Of a DNA stretch of 64,000 bases, positions 1 through 47,878 are shown one piece after another (position 1 is the first letter of the stretch; each line of letters begins with the position of its first letter). This DNA is from Heterodontus francisci (lineage: Eukaryota), in contig NC_090374.1 in assembly GCF_036365525.1 (NCBI RefSeq), forward strand, positions 13,619,168 through 13,683,167, written 5' to 3'. The translations under genes and the position numbers were made by a program. Under the pieces are notes generated by a model that was not told the origin of the DNA, searched no databases, and worked only from the letters and a program-made list of their open reading frames with translations.

Positions 1-890
1 CCAGATGGTGCAGGTGGGGAAGGAAGAGCTCACCAGGAATGAAGGGTGGGACGTCTGACAAAATGACCCGTTGTGCAATGGCCTCCAGGGGGTCCACTGG
101 CAGAAAGATCCCGCCACAGTGAGCCGCTTGCTCAGGGCCAGGGTCACCACCCGCTCGGTCTTCAGGAAAAACACTGCCTTCCTGTACATTATAGAGGCTG
201 CAACAATGGCCGAAGGGCCAACAAACCTGGCCATTGACTTAACACAAACCTCTATCGTCATGTTCGGATGGACTTGGCTCTTGACTCAATGCTTTGATGT
301 TATTAGAGCAAACGGTGACGGGGCAACAGCTGCAGTAGCATATGTGCGAGAAAGCCCTGTCACCGGCAAAGAGGGTCTTGCCATCGTGTCGCAGAACCAT
401 GCCCACCCTTAAGAAATTAGGCTAACAACAGTTTTTAAACTAAAGCAATATGATGGGAGGGGTGGTGGTGGGGGTAGAGGAGAATACGGGTGCAAAGGAA
501 AAGGACAAGGAGAGGAGAGGATAGATGTTGCTGTGTTTCGTGGTTGGAGCACCTCACTGTAGAGTCTACAGTCTACAGTCCAGTCTTCCAGTTAGCGGAG
601 TGTTCTTCGCCCGGGTCAGTTAGAGCCGCCCGGTTCTTTCCTTTTCCGCTGTTCTCTAAAAACTGTGAAGACTTTCTTCAGCCGGCCAGCTCCTGCCATC
701 CCGAGCCACACAATTGGGGGTGGGGAGGGAGCCCCCTTTGTGCAGGATGGAAGGTAAACACAAGAGCAAGTACACGGGCTTCCCTATAGAATTTGGCAGC
801 CCCACCCCTGGATCTTCCGCACCTCCTCCCTTCCCCAACAGTCTAAGCAAAAAACAGTTCTCTGCTGCTCCAACACCCATAGGGATAGAT
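1..890 (-). mobile_element. 5' part of a degenerate Tx1-clade LINE (5'UTR plus ORF1 start at 384)
   Basis: Minus-strand translation MARPSLPVTG...VGPSAIVAAS..KAVFFLKTER is homologous to ORF1 of the element at 48352-53655; contains a stop and a frameshift. Confidence 0.8.
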
Positions 891-934
891 TTGAAACAAA
901 TGTTTTTTATATATAAGCAGAGATATTCACTCAC

Positions 935-970
935 AGTCTTCTGAAGCACTGATTGTGAATCTCTTGCCAC
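935..970 (-). CDS. Exon 8: short cytoplasmic exon; gene likely continues beyond base 1
   Basis: Acceptor cttcttgttttggttaaag|, consensus donor |gtgagt, 36 nt, phase 1-1. Encodes GGKRFTISASED. Confidence 0.55.
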
Positions 971-1063
971 CTTTAACCAAAACAAGAAGTTCTGTTAGTT
1001 GGAAGATGAAATCTGAATATAAAATAAAAAACAGCTCTAAACCATTAAGGTGCAGCTGCGGAC

Positions 1064-3814
1064 ATTAGAACATTAGAACATTACAGCGCAGTACAGGCCC
1101 TTCGGCCCTCGATGTTGCGCCGACCTGTGAAATCATCTGACCTACACTATTCCATTTTCATCCATATGTCTATCCAATGACCACTTAAATGCCCTTAAAG
1201 TTGGCGAGTCTACTACTGTTGCAGGCAGGGCGTTCCACGCCCCTACTACTCTCTGAGTAAAGAAACTACCTCTAACATCTGTCCTATATCTATCACCCCT
1301 CAACTTAAAGCTATGTCCCCTCGTGTTTGCCATCACCATCCGAGGAAAAAGACTCTCACTATCTACCCGATCTAACCCTCTGATTATCTTATATGTCTCT
1401 ATTAAGTCACCTCTCCTCCTCCTTCTCTCCAACGAAAACAACCTCAAGTCCCTCAGCCTTTCCTCGCAAGACCTTCCCTCCATACCAGGCAACATCCTAG
1501 TAAATCTCCTCTGCACCCTTTCCAAAGGTTCCACATCCTTCCTATAATGCGGTGACCAGAACTGCACGCAATACTCCAGGTGCGGCCTCACCAGAGTTTT
1601 GTACAGCTGCAGCATGATCTCGTGGCTCCGAAACTCGATCCCCCTACTAATAAAAGCTAACACACCATATGCCTTCTTAACAACCTGGGTAGCAACTTTC
1701 AGGGATTTATGTACCTGGATACCAAGATCTCTCTGCTCATCTACACTACCAAGAATCTTCCCATTAGCCCAGTACTCTGCATTCCTGTTACTCCTTCCAA
1801 AGTGAATCACCTCACACTTTTCCGCATTAAACTCCATTTGCCATCTCTCAGCCCAGCTCTGCAGCCTATCTATGTCCCTCTGTACCCTACAACATCCTTC
1901 GGCACTATCCACAACTCCACCGACCTTCGTGTCATCCGCAAATTTACTAACCCACCCTTCTACACCCTCATCCAGGTCATTTATAAAAATGACAAACAGC
2001 AGTGGCCCCAAAACAGATCCTTGCAGTACACCACAAGTAACTAAACTCCAGGATGAACATTTGCCATCAACTACCACCCTCTGTCTTCTTTCAGCTAGCC
2101 AATTTCTGATCCAAAGCTCTAAATCACCTTCAACCCCATACTTCTGTATTTTCTGCAATAGCCTACCATGGGGAACCTTATCAAACGCCTTACTGAAATC
2201 CATATACACCACATCCACTGCTTTACCCTCATCCACCTGTTTGGTCACCTTCTTGAAAAACTCAATAAGGTTTGTGAGGCACGACCTACCCTTCACAAAA
2301 CCGTGCTGACTATCGCTAATGAACTTATTCTTTTCAAGATGATTATAAATCCTATCTCTTATAACCTTTTCCAACATTTTACCCACAACCGAAGTAAGGC
2401 TCACAGGTCTATAATTACCAGGGCTGTCTCTACTCCCCTCCTTGAACAAGGGGACAACATTTGCTATCCTCCAGTCTTCCGGCACTATTCCTGTCGACAA
2501 TGACGACATGAAGATCAAGGACAAAGGCTCTGCAATCTCCTCCCTGGCTTCCCAGAGAATCCTAGGATAAATCCCATCTGGCCCAGGAGACTTATCTATT
2601 TTCACACTTTCCAAAATTGCTAACACCTCCTCCTTGTGAACCTCAATCTCATCTATCCTAGTGGTCTGAATCTCAGTATTCTCCTCGACAATATTTTCCT
2701 TCTCTACTGTAAATACTGACGAAAAATATTCATTTAACGCTTCCCCTATCTCCTCTGATTCCACACACAACTTCCCACTACTATCCTTGATTGGCCCTAA
2801 TCTAACTCTAGTCATTCTTTTATTCCTGATATACCTATAGAAAGCCTTAGGGTTTTCCTTGTTCCTATCCGCCAATGACTTCTCTTGTCCTCTCCTTGCT
2901 CTTCTTAGCTCTCCCTTTGGATCCTTCCTGGCTAGCTTGTAACTCTCAAGTGCCCTAACTGAGCCTTCACGTCTCATCCTAACATCAGCCTTCTTCTTCC
3001 TCTTGACAAACGCTTCAACCTCTTTAGTAAACCACGGCTCCCTCGCTCGACAACTTCCTCCCTGCCTCACAGGTACATACTTATCAAGGACACGCAGTAG
3101 CTGCTCCTTGAATAAGCTCCACATTTCGATTGTGCCCATCCCCTGCAGTTTCCTTCCCCATCCTACGCATCCTAAATCTTGCCTAATCGCATCATAATTT
3201 CCTTTCCCCCAGCTATAATTTTTGCCCTGCGGTATATACCTGTCCCTGCCCATCGCTAAGGTAAACCTAACCGAATTGTGATCACTATCACCAAAGTGCT
3301 CACCTACATCTAAATCTAACACCTGGCCAGGTTCATTACCCAGTACCAAATCCAATGTGGCATCGCCCCTGTTTGGCCTGTCTATATACTGTGTCAGAAA
3401 ACCCTCCTGCACACACTGGACAAAAACTGATCCATCTAAAGTACTCGAACTATAGTATTTCCAGTCAAAATTTGGAAAGTTAAAGTCCCCCATAACAACT
3501 ACCCTGTTACTCTCGCTCCTGTCGAGAATCATCTTCGCTATCCTTTCCTCTACATCTCTGGAACTATTCAGAGGTCTACAGAAAACTCCCAACAGGGTGA
3601 CCTCTCCTCTCCTGTTTCTAACCTCGGCCCATACTACCTCAGTAGACGAGTCCTCAAACGTCCTTTCTGCCGCTGTTATACTCTCCTTGATTAACAATGC
3701 CACACCCCCCCCTCTTTTACCATCTTCTCTGTTCTTACTGAAACATCTAAATCCCGGAACCTGCAACATCCATTCCTGCCCCTGCTCTACCCATGTCTCC
3801 GAAATGGCCACAAC
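1064..3814 (-). mobile_element. Young 5'-truncated CR1 LINE (copy A), uninterrupted partial EN plus RT frame
   Basis: ORF 1142-3832 has APE motifs (GDFN, SDH) and RT motifs (QGSVLGP, FADD); 3' tail (CTAATGTT)n. Near-identical to the copies at 19451-23768 and 32778-35514. Confidence 0.97.
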
Positions 3815-3856
3815 CTGTTCGGTTGGTGTCAATCTCAGCGTAGGTGCAGGAATTGT
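3815..3856 (-). CDS. Exon 7: tyrosine-motif exon (ITIM-like CTYAEI)
   Basis: Begins at the first AG after the pyrimidine tract tttcactcctgtttgtctt (an AAG acceptor); 42 nt, phase 1-1. Encodes DNSCTYAEIDTNRT. Its GT donor coincides with the 5' end of a CR1 insertion. Confidence 0.65.
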
Positions 3857-3919
3857 CTTGTGTTGTAAGACAAACAGGAGTGAAATAGTGTTATTCGTCC
3901 GACATATTTGTCCTTAGGT

Positions 3920-4035
3920 GTCAGCCGTGCCTCGATGAATGACACACTCGCCTCAGAGTCTGAAGGTTGTTGGTTCAAATCCACACTCGGGAGACCTGAA
4001 CACAAAATCTAGGCTGATGCTTCAGTAAAGTACAT
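3920..4035 (+). mobile_element. 5' fragment of SacSINE1-like DeuSINE
   Basis: tRNA-like head gtcagccgtg...ggttcaaatcc, homologous to the start of 16257-16675. Confidence 0.6.
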
Positions 4036-4037
4036 AG

Positions 4038-4680
4038 GGGGCAGTAGTGTAGTGGCAATGTTACTGGACTCATCCAGGGGATTGGACTAATGCTCGGGAG
4101 ATGAGTTCAAATCCCAACACGGCAACTGATGGAATTTAAATTCAATTAATTAACTAAACTGGAATAAAAAGTAATGATAATCATGAAACTACTGGATTGT
4201 TATAAAGCCCATCTGGTTCATAAGCATCCTTCAGGGAAAGAAATCTGCTATCCTTACTCAGTCTGGCCTTCTTGTGACTCTAGACCCTTAACTGCCCTCT
4301 GAAATGGCCTGCAAGCCACTCAATTGTATCAAACTGCTACAGAAAAGTCAAAGAAGAATAAAGTATGAGCAAGGAAACCTCCTGCAGATTACCACCTCCC
4401 ACCCTCCCTCACCATGCTAAATGAGATAGATTCAGAGCAGATCTAGCAGCTCAAAACAGGCATCTATGAGGCGCTGTGGGTCATCAGCAGCAGGATTGTA
4501 TTCAATCACAATCTTGTAACCTCATGACCTGGCATATCCCTCACTCTACCGTTACCATCAAGTGAGGGGATCAACCCTGATTTGATCAGGAGCAGCACCA
4601 GGCATACCTGAAAATGAGATGCTAACTGGGTGAAGCGACAACACAGGACTACATGCATGCTCAAGGACATAAGCGAACGA
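4038..4680 (+). mobile_element. Decayed 5' part of the tRNA-headed LINE family
   Basis: A/B-box head followed by fragments homologous to 44570-45945. Confidence 0.65.
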
Positions 4681-5100
4681 GTCATGCTTTGCTGACAATC
4701 CAACAGCTTCACAGTCATTTACTGATACCAGCTTTTTCAATTCCAGATTTCTTTATGAAATGATTTCAAGTTCTCAAACTGCCATGGTGGAATTTAAACT
4801 TCTGATCTAACCTGCTGTATTAATCCAAGCGTCTAGATTAGAAGCAGTAATAAATACAGGTCACTGTGACCCATCTGTAATATGTCCTTTTTAATGATAT
4901 AAAACTTTATGTTATCTATAAAAAGGTCTAAGCACATTTAGGCCACTTTGATGTGTTTCTGCAAAACAAAAGCACGTTTATCCCCACCGGCTGCAATGTA
5001 GCCACGGTGACCCTTTTAAAGGGCATGACATTTGATCGGCTCACGTCTTCGAGTTTTGGGAAAAACTCTCCTACAGAATCTGTACAGACAGAATCTTTGC

Positions 5101-5803
5101 GGGGAATTTTATGCTCTCCCCATGGGCGACTTTGGAGGCAGGGAGAGCATTAATCGGGCGGGATGGTGGCAGTGGGGCCCCCGCCACCTTCCCACCTCCA
5201 TCAAATTTAGTCCGGGGCGGGGGCAACTGGAATTAGCCCAGTGGGCGTGGGGTGGGTGAGGAGGGGGGGCACTGGGGGCGGGCCTATCACCGCACATGGA
5301 GCATGCCAAGCAAACTTGTGTGGGTTGCCTGCTGGCTCTGGGGTGGGAGTGTCCCTCATTAAAGGACAATGAGTGCTTGATCGAGAGAGCGAGAATTGGA
5401 AAGGGGGGGGGGGGGGGGGTGCCCGCTGAGAACCACCCCCTGCCCTGACTGTCGATCCCTTACACACCCTTCCCTGTGACCCCCCCAACCCGCGAAACCC
5501 CTCACGCTGTGACGTACCTGTGGCCTGGGTCCAGTGCCTCCGGTGAGTTCAGTGCCGGCAGCTGCCACAGCCTCTGTGGTGGTGCTGCTCAGTTAAACAG
5601 CTGCCAGCCTCTGACTGGCTAACAGCTCTCAGCAGGCAGGACTTCCGCCACCGGGTTCCTTCATCCTGGGGACGGCCCGCCGCTGTCTACTTGAGTGCCT
5701 AACTGGCACGTAATATGGCAGGACTTCCCCAGAGGAGGCAACGCAGGGCTCTCGCTGGGGCTTTAACTGGTGGCTGAGACCCCTGTGACCCAGATAAAAT
5801 CCC
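5101..5803. mobile_element. GC-rich MITE-like element
   Basis: Inverted termini ggggaattttat ... ataaaatccc, internal G/C runs, no coding signature. Confidence 0.55.
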
Positions 5804-6647
5804 AGCCTTCGATTTATTCTGCAGGTGGTCACTTCAGGTAAAGGTTTCAACAAACCTTTTCAAGAGGAATTAGACAACTGCTTCAAAGTGTGTAATTAAA
5901 GGGTATGGGAAATGAATAGGAGAGTCGGATAGACCGAGTGAGTCATTGAAGGGTGTGGGGAGTGAACAGAAAAGTGGGATTAGACTGGATGGGATACCAA
6001 AGGTTATGGTTGTGGAGCAGTAGAGAGTGCAATTACACTAGATAGGATATTGAAGAGTCTGGGCAGTGACAGGATGGTGGGAGTAGAATGCATGGGATAT
6101 CAAGAGGAATGAGTAAATATTCTGGAATATTAATTAGTGCCCTGAATACCTTCTGTCTCCACCCCTCCCCCCGCCCCTTCATTCGGCAGTGAGTTTTATC
6201 AGTTCTGTTAACTCTTTCAGCACAATGTGGTTTTGAATATTTCTCTCTGGTTGTGGCTCGTTCACCCCCTCCCTCCCTCAGGTACATCTACAGTCCCACT
6301 TTCAACTTCCTCTGCAAAAACTGAGGTAAATCAAAGTGTAGCAGGCGGGCGACTCCAAGAATGGTGTTTATAAACCTGTAGACTGTAGCAGGAAGGGAAA
6401 ACTGAGGGAGGAGTTGTACAGTTTACAGAGAAAGAATAAGTGAGAGTAGGAGATGGTTCTGCGGAGTGAGCAGGAGATGGTGTGATGAACCTTGGTTAGA
6501 TGCTGCTTTCCCCCTCCCAGCACAGCTATTGGGAGTCTTTTGGATGACTGAAGATGAGGAGAGAGTTTCAGCCAGTAATTCAACCTGAGGATTCAGGTAA
6601 TGTGAAATGGTTATTGTCCAAAAAATAATCTAGAGGCAGCGATTGAG

Positions 6648-6829
6648 GGGAGGATTTTCACCTTCACGGCCTGGGCAATTGTCGAGAGAGGATCACCCGC
6701 CCTTTATAGAACAAACCTGATTTACACTCAATTATTTTCAATAGTATGAAATTCGGACAGGGTCTATAAAGGGTCATCAATCTGTCCCATCAGTTTATCA
6801 CTCAGATAATGAAGGTGAGAATCTGCCCC
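6648..6829. mobile_element. Short palindromic MITE-like element
   Basis: Inverted termini gggaggattttcaccttca ... tgaaggtgagaatctgccc. Confidence 0.55.
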
Positions 6830-6931
6830 TGAATATCTGTCCAGTATTTTCTATTTGTAGATATTCTGTAAACTCTCTCTGCTAAACTGTCTGAATGGAC
6901 TTTGATCTGTTAACTGGAGTGTAGACGGTAC

Positions 6932-6993
6932 CTGGTGCAGACTGCTGGTGGGTCTGATCGGTCCCGGCAATGCTGGATGAATCTGGATCCTTC
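6932..6993 (-). CDS. Exon 6: cytoplasmic exon (extends to stop at 6882 if the donor at 6931 is not used)
   Basis: Acceptor ggttttttttcag|, phase 2. Encodes KDPDSSSIAGTDQTHQQSAP, then either the donor CAG|gtaccg (phase 1) or read-through GTVYTPVNRSKSIQTV*. Confidence 0.78.
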
Positions 6994-7724
6994 CTGAAAA
7001 AAAACCAGCGACAGAAATATTCAGAGAAAGCTAATGGAATAATTGCAGGTGACAGTAAGGAACATCCTGTGTACACATCATCTTCCTGTTCATGTTATAC
7101 AGAGAACAGATTTCTGAGAGTGAGTAACACAGTTAATCGATCGAACCCTGCTGGAAATTGCAGATGCTGGGATGTGGACACAATCAGACTTAGTGCAGGT
7201 GAATAGATCACCACTGCTCACAGTCTCAGCTTGGCACCAGAGTGTGACTGGTATCCAAGGAACCCAGGGCATAGTCAGCAGCTGCAACACTGGGAGGGCT
7301 GCAGAAACTAGAAAAAAAATCAAGGTAACAAATGATTCCAGGCAGCTTTGATGCACCTTCCAGTAACTGGTTCTAGGGCAGTAATGGGGGGGTTATTGGA
7401 GATAAGAGATAAATTTCTGCAGCGGCTTTTCAAAGTCGTCTGCCGTAACTTTGGTGGGAGAGTTGCTGAAACCCTAGAAAATGGAGGACGATCGGGTGAC
7501 TCCCTCCCACCCAGTGGAAATTCAGCTGTTTGAAGGGGAAGGGAGAAAATAACAATATTCAAAAATACTATAAAATGACACACTTCCATATTATACTCAA
7601 ACATTCACCGCAACTGATAACAATTCAATCAAGGAAAGTCTTTCCCTCCAGCAGGCATCCACTACAACTCAGTGTCGAAAGTGATAAAAATGAGCAAGAA
7701 CCTCATTTTTACACTAAAATAAAA

Positions 7725-7915
7725 GACTTCATTTATATATTGCCTTACACGACCATCGGACATCTCAAAGTGCTTTACAGCCAATGAAATACTTTTTGAA
7801 GTGTAGTCACTGTTGTCATGCAGCAAACACAGCAGCCAGTGCACGCACAGCACCTCCCACAAACAGCAATATGTCAATCACCAGATAATCTGTCTTTGTG
7901 AAGTTGATTGAGGGT
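7725..7915 (-). mobile_element. 3' fragment of SacSINE1-like SINE
   Basis: Reverse complement matches the 3' half of 16257-16675. Confidence 0.6.
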
Positions 7916-8213
7916 GAATTAAAGGTTAATTTGGGGAAGGAAGCTCACAGGTGAATCTGGAGTCAGAGATTTACAAGCATCCTGGCAATTGGGAGCTTTT
8001 GCTCAGTAACGATTAGCCTGTGATTCATCTCAGAGCCTTTTCAGATCACTTTCCGCACAGCAAGTGCCTGAACAGCTGCTTTGAAAGGACAATCCGTGTT
8101 CACAGTTCATCACCATCAGGCTGCACTCTTATCTGTGAGCAAAAGATGTTCAATTCAACTCTGGACCAGGGAACTTAAGCTACCCTGCATGTATTAATAG
8201 ACAATCATCCTAC

Positions 8214-8253
8214 CTTTTTGTACATCTGATGCACCCTATTAGCCATGAACATC
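8214..8253 (-). CDS. Exon 5: Cys-rich juxtamembrane cytoplasmic exon
   Basis: Acceptor catttttatctctttag|, donor AAAG|gtagga, 40 nt, phase 1-2. Encodes GCSWLIGCIRCTKR and supplies exactly the phase change needed to join the TM exon to exon 6. Confidence 0.8.
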
Positions 8254-8899
8254 CTAAAGAGATAAAAATGATGAGTAAATATTTAGTTGATTAACTGAAA
8301 TCCTTATCTGGAGCATTAGAAAATGAAAGATAAAAAAGTTAATCAAAGCCACACCCCATCTACACTCTACCCCATCATGGACTCTACCCACACATTTAAT
8401 CCCCTCCCACAGCCCATGTTCACTGATTGGTCCATATCATTCCATGTGCCATGAGTGAATGTGAAGAATGTAGCCAATTAGAATTTTATACAATGGCGTA
8501 CACGTGAAGCACACACTAAATCCTGCACACTACCTTTAACATGTTGATCACATTATATTGACAAATGTATTACATAAACTCCACTATTGGAAGGGTATCA
8601 GGCCAAACCAACCCTTTTCATCAATACATACATATTGCACAATTGGATAGGTCTGGGGTTTTATTATATGATCCTTAGATTCTTTTTCTCAAGACCACCC
8701 AACATAGTCCAGTCCAATATCAATTATTGACCAAACCAGATTGCCAACAGCAGGAATCCCAACACCGAGTGAAGAGTAACAAAACACTTTCTGCCACACA
8801 AACTGTTCCACCGCCAGTTCTCTCTGTCTTTGTTCTTTTGCATTGCCCTTGCCCACTGCCCTTTCTCTGATTTCTTAAAATGTTTGTTCATTTCAGAAG

Positions 8900-9345
8900 A
8901 ATCAAAGAATCTTACAAAACAGAAGGAGGTCATTCGGCCCATTGTGCCAGTGCCGGCTCTTTGAAAGAACTTTCCAATCAGTTCCTTCCCCCTAGCTTTC
9001 CCCCAAAGCCCTGTAAATATCCAATTCCCTTTTGGAAGTTACTATTGAATCGGCTTCAATCGCCCTTTCAGGCAGCGCATTCCAGACCAGGACAACTCGC
9101 TAGATGAAAAAAATGTCATGTCACCTCAGGCTCTTTTGCCAATTACCTTAAATCTGTGGCCTCTGGTTACTGACCCCCTGCCAGTGGAAACAGTTTCTCC
9201 ATATTTACTTTATTAAAACCCTTCATGATTTTGAACACATCTATGAAATCTCCCCTGAACCTTCTCTGCTTTAAGGAGAACAACCCCAGCTTCTCTGGTT
9301 TCTGCACATAACTGAAAACCCTCATCTCTGATACCAGGCCAGTAA
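8900..9345 (-). mobile_element. Old CR1 3' fragment
   Basis: Encodes LGLFSLKQRRFRGDFIDVFKIMKG followed by a CR1-type 3'UTR. Confidence 0.8.
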
Positions 9346-9469
9346 ATCTCCGAGAAAAGCCAACGCGTTTACATTGATCCCTTTCCAAGGTGTCGTTCAA
9401 ACATAGAGACATATCTTAGGACATCATAACCATCGCTCTACTGGAACTGTCACAATATCATTGCTACAC

Positions 9470-12400
9470 TGATGGGTTGCATCTAAACTGGAGGGGGACC
9501 ATTATCCTTGCGGGGAGGTTTGCTAGTACTACTCAGGAGGGTTTAAACTAGTCTTGCAGGGGGGTGGGACCCAAAGTACTAGTCTCTCCGATGAGATAGT
9601 TGAGGCAAATGTAGATGTTAAAGCAAACAAGTCCAGTAGGAAGATGGGCAGGGGCAGGACAGGGAGCGTGGAAGGTCTGATAGGCTAAACTGCATTTACT
9701 TTAATGCAAGAAGCCTTACAGGTAAGGTAGATGAACTCAGAGCATGGATCGGTACATGGGATTATGATATTATAGCTATTACAGAAACGTGGTTGAGGGA
9801 TGGGCAGGACTGGCAGCTCAATGTTCCGGGGTACTGATGCTTCCGGCGTGACAGAGGTGGAGGTAAGAGAGGAGGGGGAGTTGCACTATTGATTAGGGAG
9901 GACATCACGGCAGTACTTAGAGAGGATATCCCGGGGGGAATGTCCAGCGAAGCCATATGGGTAGAATTTGAAATAAGAAACGGGTGATCAATTTGATGGG
10001 ATTATACTATAGACCCCCCAATAGTCAGAGGGAAGTGGAGGAGCATAGATGTAGGGAAATCACAGATTGGTGTTGGAATTACAGGGTTGTAATAGTGGGC
10101 GATTTTAACTTCCCTAATATTGACTGGGACTGCCTTAGTGCTAAGGGATCAGATGGGGAAGAATTTGTGAAGTGTGTCCAGGATAGTTTTCTGAAGCAGA
10201 ATGTGGATGGCCCTACTAGAGAAGGGGCTATACGCGACCTTCTCTTAGGAAATGAGGATGGGCAGGTGGTTGATATGTTAGTGGGGGAGCACTTTGGGAC
10301 CAGTGACCATAACTCTATTAGCTTCAAGATAGTTGTGGAAAAGGATAGGATTGGTCCTCAGGTTGAAGTCCTAAATTGGGGGAAGGCTAATTTCGATGGC
10401 ATCAGACATGAACTCTCAAAAGTTGAATGGGAGAGGCTGTTTACAGGTAAAGGGACGTCTGGCAAGTGGGAGGCTTTTAAAAGTGAGATTGGAAGAGTTT
10501 AGGGCCGGCATGTTCCTGTTAGATGGAAGGGCAAGGATGGTAAGATTAGGGAACCTTGGTTGACGAGGGATATTGAGGGTCTGGTCAGGACAAAGAAGGA
10601 GGCATATGTCAGGTACAGGCAGCTGGGATCAAGCAAGTCCCTGGAGGAGTATAGAGGATGTAGGACTACACTTAAGAAGGAAATCAGGAGGGTGAAAAGG
10701 GGCCATGAGATTTCCCTGGCATATAAGATAAAGGAGAATCCTGAAATATTCTATAAGTATATTAAGAGCAAAAGGGTAGCTAGGGAGAGAGTAGGCCCCC
10801 TTAAGGATCAGTATGGCAATCTGTGTGTGGAGCCACGGGAAATGGGCGAGGTCTTAAATGAATATTTCTCGTCCGTATTTACCGTGGAGACGGTCATGGA
10901 AGCTAGTAAGTACAAGGGAGGGAACAGCGATATCCTGGAGCATATCAACATTACAAAGGAGGAGGTGATAGAGGTTTTGAAGCGCATTAAGGTGGATAAA
11001 TCCCCAGGGCCTGAACAGGTGTATCCTAGGATGCTATGGGAAGCAAGGGAGGAGATTGCCGGGCCCTGGCAGAGATTTTTGTATCATCGTTAGCCACGGG
11101 TGAGGTACCGGAAGACTGCAGGATAGCTAATGTTCTGCCTGTATCTAAGAAGGGCAGCAGGGATAAACCAGGGAACTACAGGCCGGTAAGCCTACCACAT
11201 CAGTGGTGGGAAAATTATTGGAAGGGATTCTGAGAGACAGGATTTATATGCATTTGGAAAGGCATGGTCTGATTAGGGATAGTCAGCATGGCTTTGTGTG
11301 TGGGAAATCATGTCTCACGAATTTGATTGAGTTTTTCGAGGAGGTGATCAAGAGGATTGACGAGGGCAGGGTGATGGACGTTGTCTACATGGACTTTAGC
11401 AAGGCCTCTGACAAGGTCCTGCATGGTAGGCTGGTCCAGAAGGTTCGAACACATGGGATCCGGGGTGAGCTAGCAAATTGGATACAAAATTGGCTTGGTG
11501 ATAGGAGGCAGAGCATATCCTGGAGCATATCAACATTATAAAGGAGGGTTTATTGTCAGATTGGAGGCCGGTGATCAGTGGTGTGCCGCAGGGATCGGTG
11601 CTGGGCCCTCTGTTGTTTGTCATATATATTAATGACTTGGATGTGAATGTAGGGGGAATGAGTAGTATGTCTGCAGAAGACACCAAAATTGGTGGTATAG
11701 TGGACAGTGAAGAAGGTTGTCTAAGGTTACAACAGGATATAGATCAGCTGGGAAAGTGGGCAAGGGAGTGGCAAATGGAATTTAACTCAGACAAGTGCGA
11801 AGTGATGCATTTTGGGAAGTTAAGCCAGGGCAGAACATATACAGTGAATGGCAAGGCCCTGGGGAGTGTGGTTGAGCAGAGAGACCTTGGGGTGCAAGAC
11901 ATAGTTCCCTGAAAGTGGCAACACAGGTAGACAGGGTGGTGAAGAAGGCGTATGGCATGCTTGCCTTCATCGGCCGAGGCATTGAGTACAAGAGTTGAGT
12001 CGTCATGTTACAGTTGTACATAATGTTGGTTCGGCCGCATTTGGAGTACTGTGCGCAGTTCAGGCCGCCGCACTACAGGAAAGATGTGATTCAGCTAGAG
12101 AGGGTGCAGAAAGGATTCACAAGGATGTTGCCTGGTTTGGAGGGCTTGAGTTATAAGGAGAGATTGGATAGGCTGGGTCTGTTTTCCCTGGAGCGAAGAA
12201 GGCTGAGAGGGGACATGATAGAGGTATATAAAATTATGAAAGGCATAGATAGGGTAGATAGCCAGAGTCTGTTTCCCATGGTAGGGGTGACTAAAACTAG
12301 AGGGCATAGATTTAAGGTGAGAGGGAGGAAGTTTAAAGGGGATCAAAGGGGTAAATTTTTCACACAAAGAATAGTGGGTATCTGGAATGAGCTGCCTGAG

Positions 12401-12588
12401 GAGGTGGTGGAGGCAGGAACAGTAGCAACATTTAAGAGGCATCTGGACAGGTACTTGAATGAGCAAGGCATAGAGGGATATGGAATTAATGCAGGCAGGT
12501 GGGATTAGTATAGATAGGCATTATGGTTGGCAAGGACGCGATGGGCCAAAGGGCCTGTTTCTATGCTGTATGACTCGATGACTCTATA
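9470..12588 (+). mobile_element. Degenerate CR1 LINE (family C): ORF1 end plus ORF2
   Basis: DGLHLN...QEGLN* (esterase C-terminus), then fragmented EN/RT ORFs and a tail of gactctat-like repeats. Confidence 0.93.
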
Positions 12589-13276
12589 AATGATAACACT
12601 CATTCCACCACATTCTTAGACTGTATGGTTTGTTGTTCTTACACAAGGCCGCATGTCTCAATGTTGTAAAGGCCTTCCTTGTTTTATCAACATCAGCTGC
12701 CTCCATTCAGATGATGATACACTCAATAACAACTTGTAATTATATAGCACCTTTAACATAAAGTGTTTCACAGGAGCGTAATTTGACACTGAGCCACATA
12801 AGGAGAGATTCGAATAGGCCAATGAAAGCTTGGTCAAAAAGGTAGGTTTTTAAAAATATCGTAAAAAAGGAGGAGAAAGAGGTAGAGAGGTGGAGAGGTT
12901 TAGGGAGGGAATTCCAGACCTTCGGGTCGAAATAGCAGAAGGCACAGCTGCCAATGGTGGGGTAAAGGAAACTGGGATTTACAAGAGGTGAGAGCTGGAC
13001 AAAGACAGAGGGTTATAGGTCTGGAAGAGGTTACAGAGATAGTGAGGGCGAGGTCATAAACAAAAGGATGAGAATTTTAAATTCTCAAGATCATTGATCA
13101 CCCACATTATTGGACTCAGCAGCTTGAGCTCTATAATGTGTCCAAGGCACCTTACACCTCCAATTCAAGCAGCCCGTGCAAAGAGGGCTTGAGGTGCCTG
13201 TGCACTCAAGGATCATTATGCCCCTCAAACACTGAAACATATCGTTTTATTTGACTGCATCCTGTACACAACCCAC

Positions 13277-13384
13277 CTCCTTTCTTCCTGAAGATGATGA
13301 AAATGATGATGAGGATGAAGAGAATGAGCAGCAAAATCAGCAGTAGAAGGACCAGTAGAATGGTGCTGGAGGCAGGCGGCTTCT
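13277..13384 (-). CDS. Exon 4: transmembrane exon, no charged residue
   Basis: Acceptor cttgctgttttacag|, donor GGAG|gtgggt, 108 nt, phase 1-1. Encodes EKPPASSTILLVLLLLILLLILFILIIIFIIFRKKG. This frame is not shown in the ORF track. Confidence 0.9.
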
Positions 13385-15065
13385 CTGTAAAACAGCAAGA
13401 ACACCATTGATAAACAACATCTTAAACCGAGGATGTGTTCACCCTTGAGTCATTCCCCAGCTTGGTTCAGTTGGTGGTGTCAGAAAGCCAGAGGTTCAAG
13501 CCCCATTCATAATTTGAGCACCTAATTCACACTGAACAGCCAATACAGTAATGAAGTGTAGAGCTACATCATCAGCAGTGCTGTCTTTCAGATGAGACTT
13601 AAAACTAAGCTTCCGACTGCCTGATCAGGTAGATGCCAAAGATCCCATGACAGGCACTTTTTGAAGGAGAGCAGGGAATTCTGCTGGTGTCCTGCTAAGG
13701 TTCCCACTAAGCCATGTGAGTGTGTGGCTGCACAGCAATCCAGAACATACCGCACATTGAAATCAGCAGGCCACGCACAATGAAGAAAATTTAGAGGGAA
13801 CATTGGTCCTGGACAACCAACAGAAAATAGCTAAAATAAAAGCAAAATACTGTGGATGCGGGAAATCTGAAATAAAAACAGTAAGTGCTGGCAGGTCACA
13901 GATCTGAAACGTTAACTCTGTTTCTCTCTCCACAGATGCTGCCAGACATGCCGTGTATTTCCAGCTCTTTCCGTTTTTATTACACATATTGGCTGCTACA
14001 TTTGCTTACATAACAAAAGTTACTGCACTTCAGTAAGGGGAAGGGGAAGTTTCTGGTCCTGAGAAGTCTGTTCATAAACCCTGCCCTGAAGTGAAGTTGT
14101 GATCTATCTGCAGCTCTCGGCCTCTCTCTTCTTCCACCTCACCTGCCTCTATTGCTTTCTGCAAGATGAATGTTTCTTGGCCCTGTGGATCTGTCATGTA
14201 GAATCATACAATCTCACAGTACAGAAGGCAGCCATGCTTTCACGGAGCTATCCAATTAGTCCTACTTCTCTGCCCTTTCCCCATAGCCCTGCAGTTTCCT
14301 CCCCTCCGAGTATTCATCCAATTGCCTTGTCAAAGTTACTGAAGAATTTGTTCCACTTTCAGACAATACATTCCAGATCATAACAGTACATCAAGGAAGA
14401 CAGCTGTTTAATTATGTGTGACACCGAATATAAGATTAGATAGATATTCTAAATGACCCCACAGAGTAGTTCCCGGGTCCTGCGCAGACTCACCTGGACT
14501 CAGATGGGAAGCAGTAAGGGTTGCTTTTGGCTCCAGCTACCCCCGGGTTGAATAAAAAAGAATTGGCAATGGTTATGGATTTCTCTGAGGAGAGCTGGCA
14601 TGGACTTGATGGGCCGAATGGCCTCCTTCTGGGCTCTAAATGACTCTACAGTTCTCCCTCCTTAGTCTTTTCACTCCCTGTCGGTAATCCATGTGTGAAT
14701 GCTGAGCTAGGACAGGATCCAACTTGGCTGTGATGCCTCCCACAGTCAGACAGCCACTTGGGTAAATGTACCAGTACCTATGGAACCATTCCCGATGAAG
14801 GAGTCACACATTCTTTTTAAATCAAGAGGGACATCTTATCCTGTTGCACCTTCCAGTTAGAGATGACCTAAATGTCAGTGTAAATTTGGGTCCTTTGGAC
14901 ACTGACACACGTAACATTCAGTTCAATGGCTTTCAATACTGAATACCAAAATGTACCTAAAAGGATCAGCACATGCAAATTACTGTAAATACAATAAACA
15001 GCAAAACTGTTAGACCCTCACTGCACAACCTCGATACACTGGAGAATGTGGGAATGGTTTCTTAC

Positions 15066-15416
15066 CATGTACAACCTGCAGCTGTGTCTCAGTCTGGATC
15101 AGATATTGATAATTGTCCAATGATGTGTATTCCACCAGACACAGGTAAGTGTGATTGTCATTCACACTCAGCTGGTTTATCCTGGTTGAGGCGTTTCCCT
15201 CCTTTGGATTCCCGATGAGCTCGTACCGATTTCCACCATTTGCAGTTGTCCAAGATCCATTTGATTGGGCTCTGAATGTGACTATGTGTTGGTAGGGCTC
15301 CTTCCTCATCCATGTAACAGTGGACAGGGTGCGGTAACTCCTGGGTGTGAACATACAGGGCAATGTAACTGAAGCTCCCTCGGTCCCAGTCACCACTGAG
15401 ACATTTCCACTAGCAG
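15066..15416 (-). CDS. Exon 3: Ig V-set domain 2 (Siglec-15/NKp30/PILR-like, Arg replaced by Leu)
   Basis: Acceptor tgtcctttcctcag|, donor CATG|gtaag, 351 nt, phase 1-1. Motifs SVTLPC, TVTW, RYELIGN and DNHTYLCLVEY; four N-glycosylation sequons (NVS, NGS, NAS, NHT). Confidence 0.92.
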
Positions 15417-16256
15417 CTGAGGAAAGGACAGACATCAGAATGGATCATATGAACATCAGAAATTGGAGCAGGAATAGGCCATTCAGCCCCTCAAGCCTGC
15501 TCCACCATTTAATAAGATCATGGCTGATCTGATTATGGCCTTAACTCCACTTTTCTGCCAGCTCCCAGAACCCTTGACCTCCTCAGTGTGCTCAGATCAG
15601 TGTGCAGAATTTTTAGATTAAATTTGTTTTGTATTTTTCGACTTTACAATAGAATTAATTTCTTAAAAACTCCACTCTCATATCTCAGCAGGTCTGTCCC
15701 AGACAGGCTGTTACATTCTCCTACAGTACCCACCCTGATCATTTTAAACATTTTCTTTCATTCATGGGATGGGCATCGCTGGCTATGACAGCATTTATTG
15801 CCCATCCCTAATTGCCCTTGAGAAAGTGGTGGTGTGGCACCTTCTTGAACGGCTGCAGTCCATGTGGGGTATGTACACCCATAAGTAACTTACAGGTTAG
15901 AAAGTCCACCTACTCGAATTCATTGATCCAGAGCCCCACACCCTTCCCGCATTGCTGAATGCAATTGTTCCTTAAATTATTTCAAGGATTTCACTCCCTC
16001 CATCACTCTGTCCAGAAATCCCTTTGCAAGTGTTGACCACTCTTTGTGTAAAGGGGAACCTCCTGACATCAGTCTTCACTTGACAGTTCAGTACTTTCAA
16101 CCCATGACCATTGCTACTCACACAGTTTGATTTAAAGGAGTATTCCAGATTAATTTGGGTTGTGGGGAAATCTGCCGCTCTTCTCTGCACCACCTCCAGT
16201 GCTTGAATGTCTCTCCTCTCTCAATGCGCAGCACTTAAGATGCAGCCTGATTGCAT

Positions 16257-19450: not shown

Positions 19451-22400
19451 GGAGGTCCAGGGGACTGCTGGGTAAGTAAAAACTATATATTTGGGTGGTT
19501 TATAATCTCTTTCTTTTAGTTTTGGTGACTGCAGCTTTGACAGTAGCGAAGGTGCGAGAGCGAACTTACAGCTGGGAAGTCAATTTCAGTGGAAGTTTAA
19601 AAGTTAATTCCCTTTTGTTTTCGGAGGACCAGGGGACTGCTGGGTAAGTAAAAACTATATATTTGGGTGGTGGCTGTACCCGAGACACTACACGTGTAGT
19701 GTCTCCCACCCACCCTCCTCCTCTAACTAAAAAAAAAGGACTCTGTTGTGTTGATAAGGTAAGCTTTTTATTTAAGAAGTTCTGTCCGTTGGATTGCTAA
19801 CCTTACAAGTTTTGACTTTTTGTTTTTGGTTTTTCAGTAGATTTGTTGGGAATTTAGAATAGAGGGAATGGAAGTTAAGGCAGTTGTATGTTCCTCCTGC
19901 AGAATGAGGGAGGTAAGGGTCGCCAAGAGTGTCCCTGCTGACTGCATCTGCGGGAAGTGCACCCAACTCCAGCTCCTCGAGAACCGCGTTAGGGAGCTGG
20001 AGCTGGATGAACTTCGGATCATTTGGGAGGCGGAGGGGGTTATTGAGAGGAGTTATGGGGAGGTAGTCACACCTCAGGTAAAAGAAGTAGGTAGATGGGT
20101 TACCGTCAGGGGAAGGAGAGGGAACCAGCAGGCAGTGCAGGGATCCCCTGTGGCCGTTTCCCTCAACAACAGGTATACCGTTTTGGATACTGTTGCGAGG
20201 GACGACTTACCAGGGGTAAGCAATGGGGTACAGGTATCTGGCACAGAGTCTGTCCCTGTTGCTCAGAAGGGAAGGGGGAAGAGGAGCAGAGCATTAGTCA
20301 TTGGGGACTCCATAGTTAGGGGAACAGATAGGAGGTTCTGTGGGAACGAGAGAGACTCACGGTTGGTATGTTGCCTCCCAGGTGCCAGGGTTCGTGATGT
20401 CTCGGATCGTGTTTTTGGGATCCTTAAGGGGGAGGGGGAGCAGCCCCAAGTCGTGATCCACATAGGCACCAACGACATAGGTAGGAAGAGAGATGGGGAT
20501 TTAAGACAGAAATTCAGGGAGCTAGGGTGGAAGCTTAGAGCGAGAACAAACAGAGTTGTTATCTCTGGGTTGTTGCCCGTGCCACGTGATAGCGAAGCGA
20601 GGAATAGGGAGAGAGAGGAGTTGAACACGTGGCTGCAGGGATGGTGCAGGAGGGAGGGTTTTGGTTTCCTGGATAATTGGGGCTCTTTCTGGGGTAGGTG
20701 GGACCTCTACAAACAGGATGGTCTTCACCTGAACCAGAGGGGTACCAATATCCTGGGGGAGAGATTTGCTAGTGCTCTTCGGGGGGGGTTTAAACTAATT
20801 CAGCAGGGGAATGGGAACCTAAAATGTAGTGCCAGTGTACAGGATGTTGAGAGTAGTGAGGTCAGGGATAAGGTTACAAGGACGCAAGAGGGCACTGGCA
20901 AGCAAGAACCTGGTTTAAAGTGTGTCTACTTCAACGCCAGCAGCATTCGGAATAAGGTGGGTGAGCTTGCAGCACGGGTTGGTACCTGGGATCTCGATGT
21001 AGTGGCCATTTCGGAGACATGGGTAGAGCAGGGGCAGGAATGGATGTTGCAGGTTCCGGGATTTAGATGTTTCAGTAAGAACAGAGAAGATGGTAAAAGA
21101 GGGGGGGGGTGTGGCATTGTTAATCAAGGAGAGTATTACAGCGACAGAAAGGACGTTTGAGGACTCGTCTACTGAGGTAGTATGGGCCGAGGTTAGAAAC
21201 AGGAGAGGTGAGGTCACCCTGTTGGGAGTCTTTTATAGACCTCCAAATAGTTCCAGAGATGTAGAGGAAAGGATAGCGAAGATGATTCTCGACAGGGGCG
21301 AGAGCAACAGGGTAGTTGTTATGGGGGACTTTAACTTTCCAAATATCGACTGGAAATACTATAGTTCGAGTACTTTAGATGGGTCAGTTTTTGTCCAGTG
21401 TGTGCAGGAGGGTTTTCTGACACAGTATGTAGACAGGCCAACCAGGGGCGATGCCACATTGGATTTGGTACTGGGTAATGAACCCGGCCAGGTGTTAGAT
21501 TTAGATGTAGGTGAGCACTTTGGTGATAGTGATCACAATTCGATTAGGTTTACCTTAGCGATGGGCAGGGACAGGTATATACCGCAGGGCAAAAATTATA
21601 GCTGGGGGAAAGGAAATTATGATGCGATTAGGCAAGATTTAGGATGCATAGGATGGGGAAGGAAACTGCAGGGGATGGGAACAATCGAAATGTGGAGCTT
21701 ATTCAAGGAGCAGCTACTGCGTGTCCTTGATAAGTATGTACCTGTGAGGCAGGGAGGAAGTTGTCGAGCGAGGGAGCCGTGGTTTACTAAAGAAGTTGAA
21801 GCGCTTGTCAAGAGGAAGAAGAAGGCTTATGTTAGGATGAGACGTGAAGGCTCAGTTAGGGCGCTTGAGAGTTACAAGCTAGCCAGGAAGGATCTAAAGG
21901 GAGAGCTAAGAAGAGCAAGGAGAGGACACGAGAAGTCATTGGCGGATAGGATCAGGGAAAACCCTAAGGCTTTCTATAGGTATATCAGGAATAAAAGAAT
22001 GACTAGAGTTAGATTAGGGCCAATCAAGGATAGTAGTGGGAAGTTGTGTGTGGAATCAGAGGAGGTAGGGGAAGTGTTAAATGAATATTTTTCATCAGTA
22101 TTTACAGTAGAGAAAGAAAATGTTGTCAAGGAGAATACTGAGATTCAGGCTACTAGGCTAGATGGGATTGAGGTTCACAAGGAGGAGGTGTTAGCAATTT
22201 TGGAAAGTGTGAAAATAGATAAGGCCCCTGGGCCAGATGGGATTTATCCTAGGATTCTCTGGGAAGCTAGGGAGGAGATTGCAGAGCCTTTGTCCTTGAT
22301 CTTTATGTCGTCATTGTCGACAGGAATAGTGCCGGAAGACTGGAGGATAGCAAATGTTGTCCCCTTGTTCAAGAAGGGGAGTAGAGACAGCCCTGGTAAT

Positions 22401-23768
22401 TATAGACCTGTGAGCCTTACTTCGGTTGTGGGTAAAATGTTGGAAAAGGTTATAAGAGACAGGATGTATAATCATCTTGAAAAGAATAAGTTCATTAGCG
22501 ATAGTCAGCACGGTTTTGTGACGGGTAGGTCGTGCCTCACAAACCTTATTGAGTTTTTCGAGAAGGTGACCAAACAGGTGGATGAGGGTAAAGCAGTGGA
22601 TGTGGTGTATATGGATTTCAGTAAGGCGTTTGATAAGGTTCCCCATGGTAGGCTATTGCAGAAAATACGGAAGTATGGGGTTGAAGGTGATTTAGAGCTT
22701 TGGATCAGAAATTGGCTAGCTGAAAGAAGACAGAGGGTGGTGGTTGATGGCAAATGTTCATCCTGGAGTTTAGTTACTTGTGGTGTACCGCAAGGATCTG
22801 TTTTGGGGCCACTGCTGTTTGTCATTTTTATAAATGACCTGGAAGAGGGTGCAGAAGGTTGGGTTAGTAAATTTGCAGATGACACTAAGGTCGGTGGAGT
22901 TGTGGAAAGTGCCGAAGGATGTTGTAGGGTACAGAGGGACATAGATAGGCTGCAGAGCTGGGCTGAGAGATGGCAAATGGAGTTTAATGCGGAAAAGTGC
23001 GAGGTGATTCACTTTGGAAGGAGTAACAGGAATGCAGAGTACTGGGCTAATGGGAAGATTCTTGGTAGTGTAGATGAACAGAGAGATCTTGGTCTCCAGG
23101 TACATAAATCCCTGATGGTTGCTACCCAGGTTAATAGGGCTGTTAAGAAGGCATATGGTGTGTTCGCTTTTATCAGTAGGGGGATCGAGTTTCGGAGCCA
23201 CGAGGTCATGCTGCAGCTGTACAAAACTCTGGTGAGGCCGCACCTGGAGTATTGCATGCAGTTCTGGTCACCACATTATAGGAAGAATGTGGAAGCTATG
23301 GAAAGGGTGCAGAGGAGATTTACTAGGATGTTGCCTGGTATGGAGGGAAGGTCTTACGAGGAAAGGCTGAGGGACTTGATGTTGTTTTCGTTGGAGAGAA
23401 GGAGGAGGAGAGGTGACTTAATAGAGACATATAAGATAATCAGAGGGTTAGATAGGGTGGATAGTGAGAGTCTTTTTCCTCGGATGGTGATGGCAAACAC
23501 GAGGGGACATAGCTTTAAGTTGAGGGGTGATAGATATAGGACAGATGTCAGAGGTAGTTTCTTTACTCAGACAGTAGTAGGGGCGTGGAACGCCCTGCCT
23601 GCAACAGTAGTAGACTCGCCAACTTTAAGGGCATTTAAGTGGTCATTGGATAGACATATGGATGAAAATGGAATAGTGTAGGTCAGATGGTTTCACAGGT
23701 CGGCGCAACATCGAGGGCCGAAGGGCCTGTACTGCGCTGTAATGTTCTAATTCTAATTCTAATTCTAA
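19451..23768 (+). mobile_element. Full-length young CR1 LINE (copy B): 5'UTR, ORF1 (zinc finger plus SGNH esterase), ORF2 (APE EN plus RT)
   Basis: ORF1 from 19868 has CSSC..CICGKC, GDSIVRG, HIGTND and DGLHLN. ORF2 runs to 23681; tail (TTCTAA)n. The 5' boundary is approximate. Confidence 0.96.
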
Positions 23769-31691: not shown

Positions 31692-32084
31692 CTTCCACTC
31701 TCAGACTCGTTAGTTTCTGTGTTTGAAATTGTCCAACAGTGAGCTCCACACGACACTGATAAGGACCACTGTCCGCCCGGATCAGCCGCTCCATCATTAT
31801 TGAGACATCTTTGTTACTGAAGTTCCCCACGAATCTGAATCGATTCCCGCCGTCCTGTTGTTTCACATCCTCACACAGCTCACTCTGTGAATGGCCCGGA
31901 CCAGAATATGTACACTTAAAAATAACATTGTAATCCCATGAATCGCGGTTGTACCATGTCACAGAGCCGGTGACCGTCTGATCAGTGTGTGGGTGGGTGA
32001 AAGTACACGGCAAGACAGCGGACCCTCCTTCCTCAACACTCACATCATCCGCAGCGCTCATTGTCCAACCATTCTCAGAAAACT
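31692..32084 (-). CDS. Exon 2: Ig V-set domain 1, Siglec-15-like, with essential Arg
   Basis: Acceptor (ct)n-ccacag|, donor GAAG|gtgagg, 393 nt, phase 1-1. Encodes WTMSAADDVSVEEGGSAVLPCTFTHPH...VTW...IFKC..SELC...RFRFVGN...DSGPYQCRVEL, which matches the Siglec-15 V-domain motifs AVLPCTFTHPH, FRC..SELC, RFRLLGN and YFCRVEF. Confidence 0.93.
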
Positions 32085-32777: not shown

Positions 32778-35514
32778 TTAGAAATTGGAACATTAGAACA
32801 TTACAGCGCAGTACAGGCCCTTCGGCCCTCGATGTTGCGCCGATCATCTGACCTACACTATTCCATTTTCATCCATATGTCTATCCAATGACCACTTAAA
32901 TGCCCTTAAAGTTGGCGAGTCTACTACTGTTGCAGGCAGGGCGTTCCACGCCCCTACTACTCTCTGCGTATAGAAACTACCTCTGACATCTGTCCTATAT
33001 CTTTCACCCCTCAACTTAAAGCTATGTCCCCTCGTGTTTGCCATCATCATCCGAGGAAAAAGACTCTCACTATCCACCCTATCTAACCCTCTGATTATCT
33101 TGTATGTCTCTATTAAGTCACCTCTCCTCCTCCTTCTCTCTAACGAAAACAACCCCAAGTCCCTCAGCCTTTCCTCGTAAGACCTTCCTTCCATACCAGG
33201 CAACATCCTAGTAAATCTCCTCTGCACCCTTTCCAAAGCTTCCACATCCTTCCTATAATGCGGTGACCAGAACTGCACGCAATACTCAAGGTGTGGCCTC
33301 ACCAGAGTTTTGTACAGCTGCATCATGACCTCGTGGCTCCGAAACTCGATCCTCCTACTAATAAAAGCTAACACACCATATGCCTTCTTAACAGCCCTAT
33401 TAACCTGGGTAGCAACTTTCAGGGATTTATGTACCTGGACACCAAGATCTCTCTGCTCATCTACACTACCAAGAATCTTCCCATTAGCCCAGTACTCTGC
33501 ATTGCTGTTACTCCTTCCAAAGTGAATCACCTCACACTTCTCCGCATTAAACTCCATTTGCCATCTCTCAGCCCAGCTCTGCAGCCTATCTATGTCCCTC
33601 TGTACCCTACAACACCCTTCGACACTATCCACAACTCCACCGACCTTCGTGTCATCCGCAAATTTACTAACCCACCCTTCTACACCCTCATCCAGGTCAT
33701 TTATAAAAATGACAAACAGCAGTGGCCCCAAAACAGAACCTTGCGGTACACCACTAGTAACTAAACTCCAGGATGAACATTTGCCATCAACCACCACCCT
33801 CTGTCTTCTTTCAGCTAGCCAATTTCTGATCCAAAGCTCTAAATCACCTTCAACCCCATACTTCCGTATTTTCTGCAATAGCCTACCGTGGGGAACCTTA
33901 TCAAACGCCTTACTGAAATCCATATACACCACATCCACGGCTTTACCCTCATCCACCTGTTTGGTCACCTTCTCGAAAAACTCAATAAGGTTTGTGAGGC
34001 ACGACCTACCTTTCACAAAACCGTGCTGACTATCGCAAATGAACTTATTCTTTTCAAGATGATTATAAATCCTATCTCTTATAATCCTTTCCAACATTTT
34101 ACCCACAACCGAAGTAAGGCTCACAGGTCTATAATTACCAGGGCTGTCTCTACTCCCCTTCTTGAACAAGGGGACAACATTTGCTATCCTCCAGTCCTCC
34201 GGCACTACTCCTGTCGACAATGACGACATAAAGATCAACAACAACGGCTCTGCAATCTCCTCCCTGGCTTCCCAGAGAATCCTAGGATAAATCCCATCTG
34301 GCCCAGGGGACTTATCTATTTTCACTCTTTCCAAAATTGCTAACACCTCCTCCTTGTGAATCTCAATCCCATCTAGCCTAGTAGGCTGTATCTCAGTAAT
34401 CTCCTCGACAACATTTTCTTTCTCTACTGTAAATACTGATGAAAAATATTCATTTAACGCTTCCCCTATCTCCTCCGATTCCGCACACAACTTCCCACTA
34501 CTATCCTTGATTGGCCCTGTTCTAACTCTTATCATTCTTTTATTCCTGATTTACCTATAGAAAGCCTTAGGGTTTTCTTTGATCCTATCCGCCAATGACT
34601 TCTCGTGTCCTCTCCTTGCTCTTCTTAGCCCTCCCTTTAGATCCTTCCTGGCTAGCTTGTAACTCTCAAGCGCCCTAACTGAGCCTTCACGCCTCATCCT
34701 AACATAAGCCGCCCTCTTCCTCTTGACAAGCGCTTCAACTTCTTGAGTAAACCACGGCTCCCTCGCTCGACAACTTCCTCCCTGCCTGACAGGTACATAC
34801 TTATCAAGGACACGCATTAGCTGCTCCTTGAATAAGCTCCACATTTCGTTTGTGCCCATCCCCTGCAGTTTCCTTCCCCATCCTACACATCCTAAATCTT
34901 GCCTAATCGCGTCATAATTTCCTTTCCCCCAGCTATAATTCTTGCCCTGCGGTATATACCTGTCCCTGCCCATCGCTAAGGTAAACCTAACCGAATTGTG
35001 ATCACTATCGCCAAAGTGCTCACCTACATCTAAATCGAACACCTGTCCGGGTTCATTACCCAATACCAAATCCAATGTGGCATCGCCCCTGGTTGGCCTG
35101 TCCACATACTGTGTCAGAAAACCCTCCTGCACACACTGGACAAAAACAGACCCATCTAAAGTACTCGAACGATAGTATTTCCAGTCATTATTTGGAAAGT
35201 TAAAGTCCCCCATAACCACTACCCTGTTACTCTCGCTCCTGTCGAGAATCATCTTCGCTATCCTTTCCTCTGCATCTCTGGAACTATTCGGAGGTCTATA
35301 GAAAACTCCCAACAGGGTGACCTCTCCTCTCCTGTTTCTAACCTCGGCCCATACTACCTCAGTAGACGAGTCCTCAAACGTCCTTTCTGCCGCTGTAATA
35401 CTTTCCTTGATTAACAATGCCACACCCCCCCCTCTTTTACCATCTTCTCTGTTCTTACTGAAACATCTAAATCCCGGAACCTGCAACATCCATTCCTGCC
35501 CCTGCTCTACCCAT
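32778..35514 (-). mobile_element. Young 5'-truncated CR1 (same family as copies A and B), single nonsense codon
   Basis: ORFs 34551-35489 and 32853-34535 are in the same frame, split by a TAT>TAA change at 34551-34553; CTAATGTT tail. Confidence 0.96.
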
Positions 35515-47817: not shown

Positions 47818-47878
47818 TGGAACCCCACACTGAGACCGACAGCAGAACTGTGGAAAGCCAAACGTAGAGAGAACTCAT
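47818..47878 (-). CDS. Exon 1 (signal peptide) of Siglec-15-like two-V-domain receptor
   Basis: GCG-ATG start; encodes MSSLYVWLSTVLLSVSVWGS (hydrophobic leader). It ends in the phase-1 donor TCCA|gtaggt, matching the phase-1 acceptor of the first V exon. Confidence 0.8.

Follow-up and report, generated by a model that had tools for sequence, protein, structure and literature searches.

A minus-strand receptor gene of the Siglec-15-like V-V type, here called W, occupies the window, the whole stretch of 64,000 nt that was analysed (G000:C4:13619168-13683167 of a 6.0-Gb assembly). Nine exons of this gene were mapped from P0007, a public protein of 381 aa (XP_067885265.1/266.1) labelled Heterodontus francisci, which is 100% identical to the second V-set domain of W and maps onto the nine exons except for three junction residues. 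All exons described below lie on the minus strand. Mapping of the protein to the genome placed the signal-peptide exon of the public model (47818..47878), a transmembrane exon whose helix carries no charged residue (13277..13384) and a first cytoplasmic exon of 40 nt (8214..8253). The first V-set Ig exon (V1, 31692..32084), which is Siglec-15-like, was recognized by a domain search and a structure match, and the second (V2, 15066..15416) by a domain search and by a contig from an RNA-type run. The next cytoplasmic exon, C2 (6932..6993), ends on the donor CCAG/GTACCG (the slash marks the exon border); paralog RNA shows it spliced onto exon A, the W model onto exon C. Of the last three exons, all beyond the window, C lies at about -12.7 kb, D at about -12.8 kb and E at about -17.8 kb; they are intact, exon C having the same sequence as that of the paralog P1 and canonical splice sites. 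A W-specific variant of C2, GATCCAGATTCATCC, is found 45-55 nt upstream of the C2 donor. A further candidate exon at 7264-7307 (ADYAL) was rejected, being in the wrong phase and missing from the models.

The receptor family and its cluster

Both V1 and V2 of W score as V-set in the domain search. Among solved structures, the best match of V1 is Siglec-15 (7zoz, E 3e-16), and the arginine of its YQCRVEL motif is aligned to that of YFCRVEF in Siglec-15. We take this residue to be the essential arginine of Siglecs. The genome holds 13 full-length copies of V2 at 95-100% identity, spread over G000:C4:13.32-13.67 Mb, 14.7-14.95 Mb and C2279. Among the genes bearing V2, the long tyrosine tail is present only in W and in two tandem paralogs, P1 (C4:13.51-13.56 Mb) and P2 (C4:13.32-13.41 Mb). 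Other members of the cluster (P0008, P0011) have a different transmembrane segment that contains a lysine, and the presence of such genes beside tyrosine-tail genes resembles the arrangement of paired activating and inhibitory receptors. W is transcribed: a 593-nt contig from run X5 matches its V2 with 0 differences and exits at the acceptor into 240 other bases, whereas the 12 other full-length copies are only 95-99% identical. Among the listings of the literature searched, no publication deals with the locus or with this family of receptors.

Several repeats and rearrangements were seen around these genes. In each of the three genes (L032, L033, L035), the intron between D and E contains a tandem repeat of 54-55 bp, which ranges from blocks of about 0.5 kb in W to more than 15 kb in P1, and a tandem array of about 67-bp units at 61570-62185 is related to a repeat near exon B of the paralogs. 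At positions 1-881, W diverges from both paralogs about 50 nt past exon B, a junction that was found in DNA run X1; beyond this point about 6.5 kb of P2 sequence is absent from W. Positions 1-323 are 78% like a degraded zinc-knuckle/RT element at 49.1-53.5 kb, presumably a Tx1/L1-like element.

Tyrosine and spacer cassettes

Between C2 and exon C, the tail genes carry small exon pairs. In W, exon A (copy 2, 3815..3862) is a 48-nt phase-1 cassette encoding QDNSCTYAEIDTNRT, and exon B (copy 2, 935..970) is a 36-nt phase-1 spacer cassette with intact splice sites (TAAAG/ and /GTGAGT); the public W model omits it. The splicing of these cassettes was read from contigs of three runs of one sample (X5, X6 and X8), which were taken as RNA since their contigs skip introns, the records bearing no RNA label; 12 such contigs cover the P1 stretch. 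In paralog RNA, C2 is spliced onto the CAG/CACAAG acceptor of exon A in 3/3 runs, and A is joined to B across a 93-nt GT-AG intron, the P1 type being seen in X8 and the P2 type in all three runs. The first and second A exons (A1 and A2) are joined with a 48-nt step in two of the three runs, and exon C is reached from A and from B in two of three as well. It follows from these joins that exon A is 48 nt long, that both it and exon B are phase-1 cassettes of optional use, and that cassette skipping is normal in this family. The first-pass annotation had set the exonic status of 3815-3856 as a test; the homologous exon is indeed spliced in paralog RNA, but the exon extends to 3862, a cryptic AAG having been mistaken for its start. 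One low-depth contig on the P1 stretch (X5 record 9) runs from exon B through CTCAGCCTG into bases that resemble the end of C2, perhaps through template switching or back-splicing.

Public models show the same variability. P1 has six isoforms with varied sets of A and B, one of them without any, and P0091 (P1) shares the skip of W. In the W model, C2 is joined straight to exon C at G000:C4:13606502, 12.7 kb past the window, and then to D and E, so that the protein tail reads ...HQQSAP-AQPDSCTYASI...ENVTYAAVVTTR. This single public protein, under two accessions, lacks both A and B; its gene model, and with it the W-specific C2-C junction, is a prediction of automatic annotation. W-specific bases of exon A or B occur in 0/12 RNA-run contigs of the P1 stretch, which is not evidence of absence as contigs lose rare forms. 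Contigs over 800-16000 (X5, X6, X7, X9) are mostly repeats, and 15 of their 404 joints were viewed, none being a gene junction, which makes them uninformative on a 3815-970 join.

P1 and P2 each have two tandem units made of exon A, an intron and exon B. Only one such unit was found in W, the A1-B1 pair being gone. Since A1 and A2 differ from each other (82-85%) more than the paralogs do, the duplicated pair probably predates the triplication of the gene. In P2, B1 (L003) has lost both its acceptor and its donor with no LINE involved, the A1 acceptor is TAAAG, and the models leave A1 out; in P1, the acceptor tract of B1 (L004) is partly deleted. On these sequences, the duplicated unit has decayed in parallel in P1 and P2, and in P2, as in the loss of the A1-B1 pair from W, no LINE is involved.

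The motif of exon A, CTYAEI, has a cysteine at Y-2 and falls outside both the ITIM consensus, (S/I/V/L)xYxx(I/V/L) in PMC12151841, and the ITSM consensus, TxYxx(V/I). By contrast, VTYAAV in the terminal exon E (G000:C4:13601401) fits the ITIM consensus and is intact in W. The earlier description of exon A as the inhibitory exon is thus not supported. A-type motifs are nevertheless present in 27 of 91 family proteins (84 hits plus 7 cluster members), across sharks. The cassette is therefore old and may matter, and its loss is maybe not neutral.

A CR1-type LINE at the exon A donor

Next to exon A, on the same strand, lies a 5'-truncated LINE of 2,753 bp (1062..3814), whose limits are ambiguous by a 2-nt GT at either end. 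An insertion here had been correctly proposed, but with one limit at 1040. The element contains the remainder of an ORF2 (1142..3814), 890 codons without a stop, in which a domain search found endonuclease (PF03372/PF14529) and reverse transcriptase (PF00078) domains; the truncation falls inside the endonuclease. These domains run in the direction of the host gene, which bears out the sense orientation proposed earlier. Neither ORF1 nor a promoter is present in this copy, and its sole sense AATAAA is at 2824. The 3' end (1062..1122) combines a predicted stem-loop (1084-1122), whose fold is not above shuffles (z -1.31; 22/200 shuffles equally stable), with 2.6 units of the 8-nt repeat AATGTTCT at 1062-1082. 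The frame of ORF2 has no stop in a further 33 codons upstream (1142-3913), running through exon A into the intron, and is not the frame in which the exon is read. A receptor-RT fusion through this frame was considered and rejected: it requires an acceptor at 3913 that lacks a pyrimidine tract, and the private changes of this copy are too few to show selection.

The LINE belongs to an abundant family. Its 49-nt 3' end is exactly matched at 410 genome sites, and a single family 50-mer has 12,759 exact matches in the 6.0-Gb assembly, which puts the family at no fewer than that many copies (at least 12,759). A full-length copy in the window, at 19841-23757 on the plus strand, is 96.8% identical to the insertion copy and carries a GDSL-esterase ORF1 (PF13472, E 2e-14); near 21.0-21.2 kb, a frameshift splits its ORF2. 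Also in the window is a third copy, truncated, at 32784-35514 on the minus strand. The putative assignment to the CR1 type relies on the domains, the esterase ORF1 and the 8-nt 3' tail. An endonuclease and an RT in one ORF, a 3' microsatellite and an esterase ORF1 are CR1 traits according to PMC8665684 and PMC4316615, and for sharks PMC3747384 lists HER1 as the LINE that partners HE1 SINEs.

To place the insertion among its relatives, 40 loci were fetched, of which 36 were distinct and 20 long enough for an alignment of 1.4 kb. Between the insertion copy and the other 19, divergence is 1.4-3.2%, with the nearest sampled relative at 1.4%; of 1,391 bases, 10 carry changes private to the insertion copy (0.72%; range 0.14-1.37% among the 20 copies). 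A sister subfamily of 14 copies has a median mutual difference of 1.1%. As judged from these alignments, the element, first described as young, is young yet not among the youngest copies. Its private changes in this 3' part comprise 6 non-synonymous and 4 synonymous ones, too few to show selection.

Both junctions were read as first reported. Exon A ends with ...CGAACAG at 3815 and is followed directly by the LINE sequence GTTGTGGCC from 3814; at the other end, the tail finishes with ...CTAATGT at 1062 and is followed by CCGCAGC, with the intron acceptor at 971. GT is present at both junctions, also as stated, and the 5' junction shares no further bases with the full-length copy of the window. 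This GT can be a 2-nt duplication or a microhomology at the 5' end; short microhomology is described for LINE 5' ends in PMC4760211. Between the LINE and exon B, the remainder of the A-B intron (971..1061) differs from the two paralogs at 2 and 4 of 90 nt.

The two units of P1 and of P2 provide four empty sites, which are paralogous and not orthologous to the W site. All four donors read CAG/GTAC (GTACGC in the two copies closest to W, at 94% and 91%, and GTACAT in the other two), and GTCCGC is found in 0/4. When the LINE is removed from W and one GT is kept, a 93-nt intron is restored with no large deletion and with a single mismatch, a C at +3 where the paralogs have A. The geometry predicted earlier for the empty site thus holds, but the CAG/GTCCGC that was taken for the ancestral donor is not documented as such. 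The C at +3 matches neither the A of the paralogs nor the next base of the tail, a T; it may have arisen by error at the junction or by a subsequent change. The insertion is taken to be younger than the gene triplication, both paralogs being empty at the site. It has lengthened the A-B intron from 93 nt, as in the paralogs, to 2,844 nt, about 31-fold and close to the 30-fold first estimated. The exon A donor has become CAG/GTTGTG, and its match to the U1 consensus is 5/9 against 7/9 in the paralogs, which makes the ancestral donor a better one than first assumed; the earlier claim of a real tyrosine-motif exon with a donor wrecked by a LINE is thereby upheld.

Assuming 1.5-2.5 x 10^5 donors, 12,759 copies and no selection, 0.2-1.6 donor hits by this family would be expected by chance in the whole genome, that is, about one. 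Chance alone suffices, so no target preference for donors needs to be invoked, and such hits would survive best in redundant exons.

Fate of exon A and comparison with known systems

The LINE is not the sole lesion of exon A, as its acceptor is gone as well. At 3863..3864 the TACAG of the ancestral acceptor has become TACAA, whereas the AG is kept in 7/7 other A- and C-type exons across the three genes; this loss had gone unreported in the first-pass annotation. The exon has two private CpG-type changes besides, one of them D to N. A cryptic AAG lies 6 nt inside the exon (3857), in frame, and a 42-nt version starting from it would keep the tyrosine.

With both sites damaged, exon A of W is likely a pseudoexon. 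The explanation that we favour, with a probability of about three in four, is that the LINE in its donor and the mutated acceptor cause exon A to be skipped for good, which leaves a shorter, still ITIM-bearing receptor. The LINE would have arrived by target-primed reverse transcription after the triplication, the GT being a 2-nt duplication or a microhomology, in an ordinary retrotransposition into a tolerant site. C2 would then be spliced to C, perhaps through B, a join that keeps the reading frame, as A (48 nt) and B (36 nt) are both symmetric phase-1 cassettes. Exon A is optional and one of several similar copies, which is probably why the insertion was tolerated. The tail of W most likely carries two tyrosine motifs (CTYASI and VTYAAV), where P2 has three and P1 as many as four.

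A more eventful history, in which the LINE was the first hit, appears unlikely. It would have deleted a conserved phosphotyrosine cassette in one of three sister Siglec-like inhibitory receptors, fixing the two-tyrosine isoform that the sisters obtain by alternative splicing; selection would have retained it to retune phosphatase recruitment, and a minor transcript ending in the LINE would add an ITIM-less decoy. That exon A is still usefully included, by way of the cryptic AAG and the GTTGTG donor over a 2.8-kb intron, with the LINE merely lowering its inclusion, is an idea of low probability: the GT and the exonic CAG are kept, the sites of exon B are intact and the 42-nt form is in frame with its tyrosine, but both sites of exon A are damaged, private changes have accumulated in it and the W model lacks it. 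Low-level inclusion by the same route, the new donor retaining GT, is possible.

Slightly less credible still is the outcome proposed at the outset, that a weakened exon A donor favours a short W isoform, made by reading through the C2 donor (6882..6931, GTVYTPV...stop) and ending in an ITSM. The TVYTPV of this segment, which arises only by passing the C2 donor, fits TxYxx(V/I), and the read-through and its stop are kept in all three genes (as TEYTPV in P1); this conservation is uninformative, as the flanking introns are about 95% alike anyway. Against it, YTP[VI] occurs in 0/91 family proteins, all three RNA-type runs show the C2 donor in use in the paralogs, exon C downstream has an intact in-frame acceptor to which the W model skips, and neither AATAAA nor ATTAAA lies within about 1 kb past the stop in W or P2. 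The segment is unsupported as an exon; for a rare form, contigs are no proof of absence. A use of exon A as a terminal exon is again a little less plausible. Entry at the in-frame AAG would be followed by 22 codons of LINE read-through, a stop at codon 23 and polyadenylation at the AATAAA of 2824, giving a receptor without an ITIM; a read-through of about 23 codons, out of frame with the RT, had been rightly noted. AAG is a weak acceptor, though, the true one is gone, and the public W model does not use AAG. Least probable of all, and by our estimate remote, is an assembly artefact or a rare insertion allele still segregating. The LINE family is young, and among the DNA contigs of the paralog stretch (8 of 10 viewed) none has the GTCCGC empty site or either LINE junction, an outcome uninformative on polymorphism as contigs lose rare forms. 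The 10 private changes and the distance to the nearest sampled relative indicate that the insertion is not brand new, and the W-specific sequence next to exon B is present in a DNA run.

In sum, nothing at this locus reveals a new mechanism: a LINE has landed in an optional exon that is decaying, within a duplicated receptor gene of a shark, which is an ordinary event. If the favoured reading of permanent skipping holds, it offers within one genome, with its empty sites and spliced sisters, a worked example of how receptor tails vary through small tyrosine exons gained and lost. Greater significance would require that the LINE came before the loss of the acceptor and altered signalling, or that it still segregates.

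Retrotransposons at splice sites cause exon skipping in human disease alleles involving L1, Alu and SVA. As in those alleles, the element of W sits at a donor, replaces the bases +3 to +6 and lengthens the intron. Unlike them, it affects an exon that is optional and in frame, in a duplicated gene where a second lesion is present, so that loss of the protein is not expected. The element itself compares well with CR1-clade LINEs such as chicken CR1 and turtle PsCR1, sharing the APE and RT in a single ORF, the 5' truncation and an 8-nt 3' microsatellite, which here follows a stem-loop that is predicted but no more stable than shuffles; the esterase ORF1 is found in the full-length sister copy and is absent from the truncated insertion copy. 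Its tail unit, AATGTTCT, differs from the ATTCTRTG of amniote CR1. As for the receptors, they recall the clusters of CD33-related Siglecs, Siglec-15 and PILR-like genes: V1 is nearest to Siglec-15 among solved structures and has the arginine, the clustered ectodomains are near-identical, and three genes have tyrosine tails while others have different ones. This likeness, drawn from sequence, has its limits, since Siglecs combine a V-set with C2-set domains, whereas the family of W has two V-set domains and a tail built from repeated pairs of tyrosine and spacer exons.
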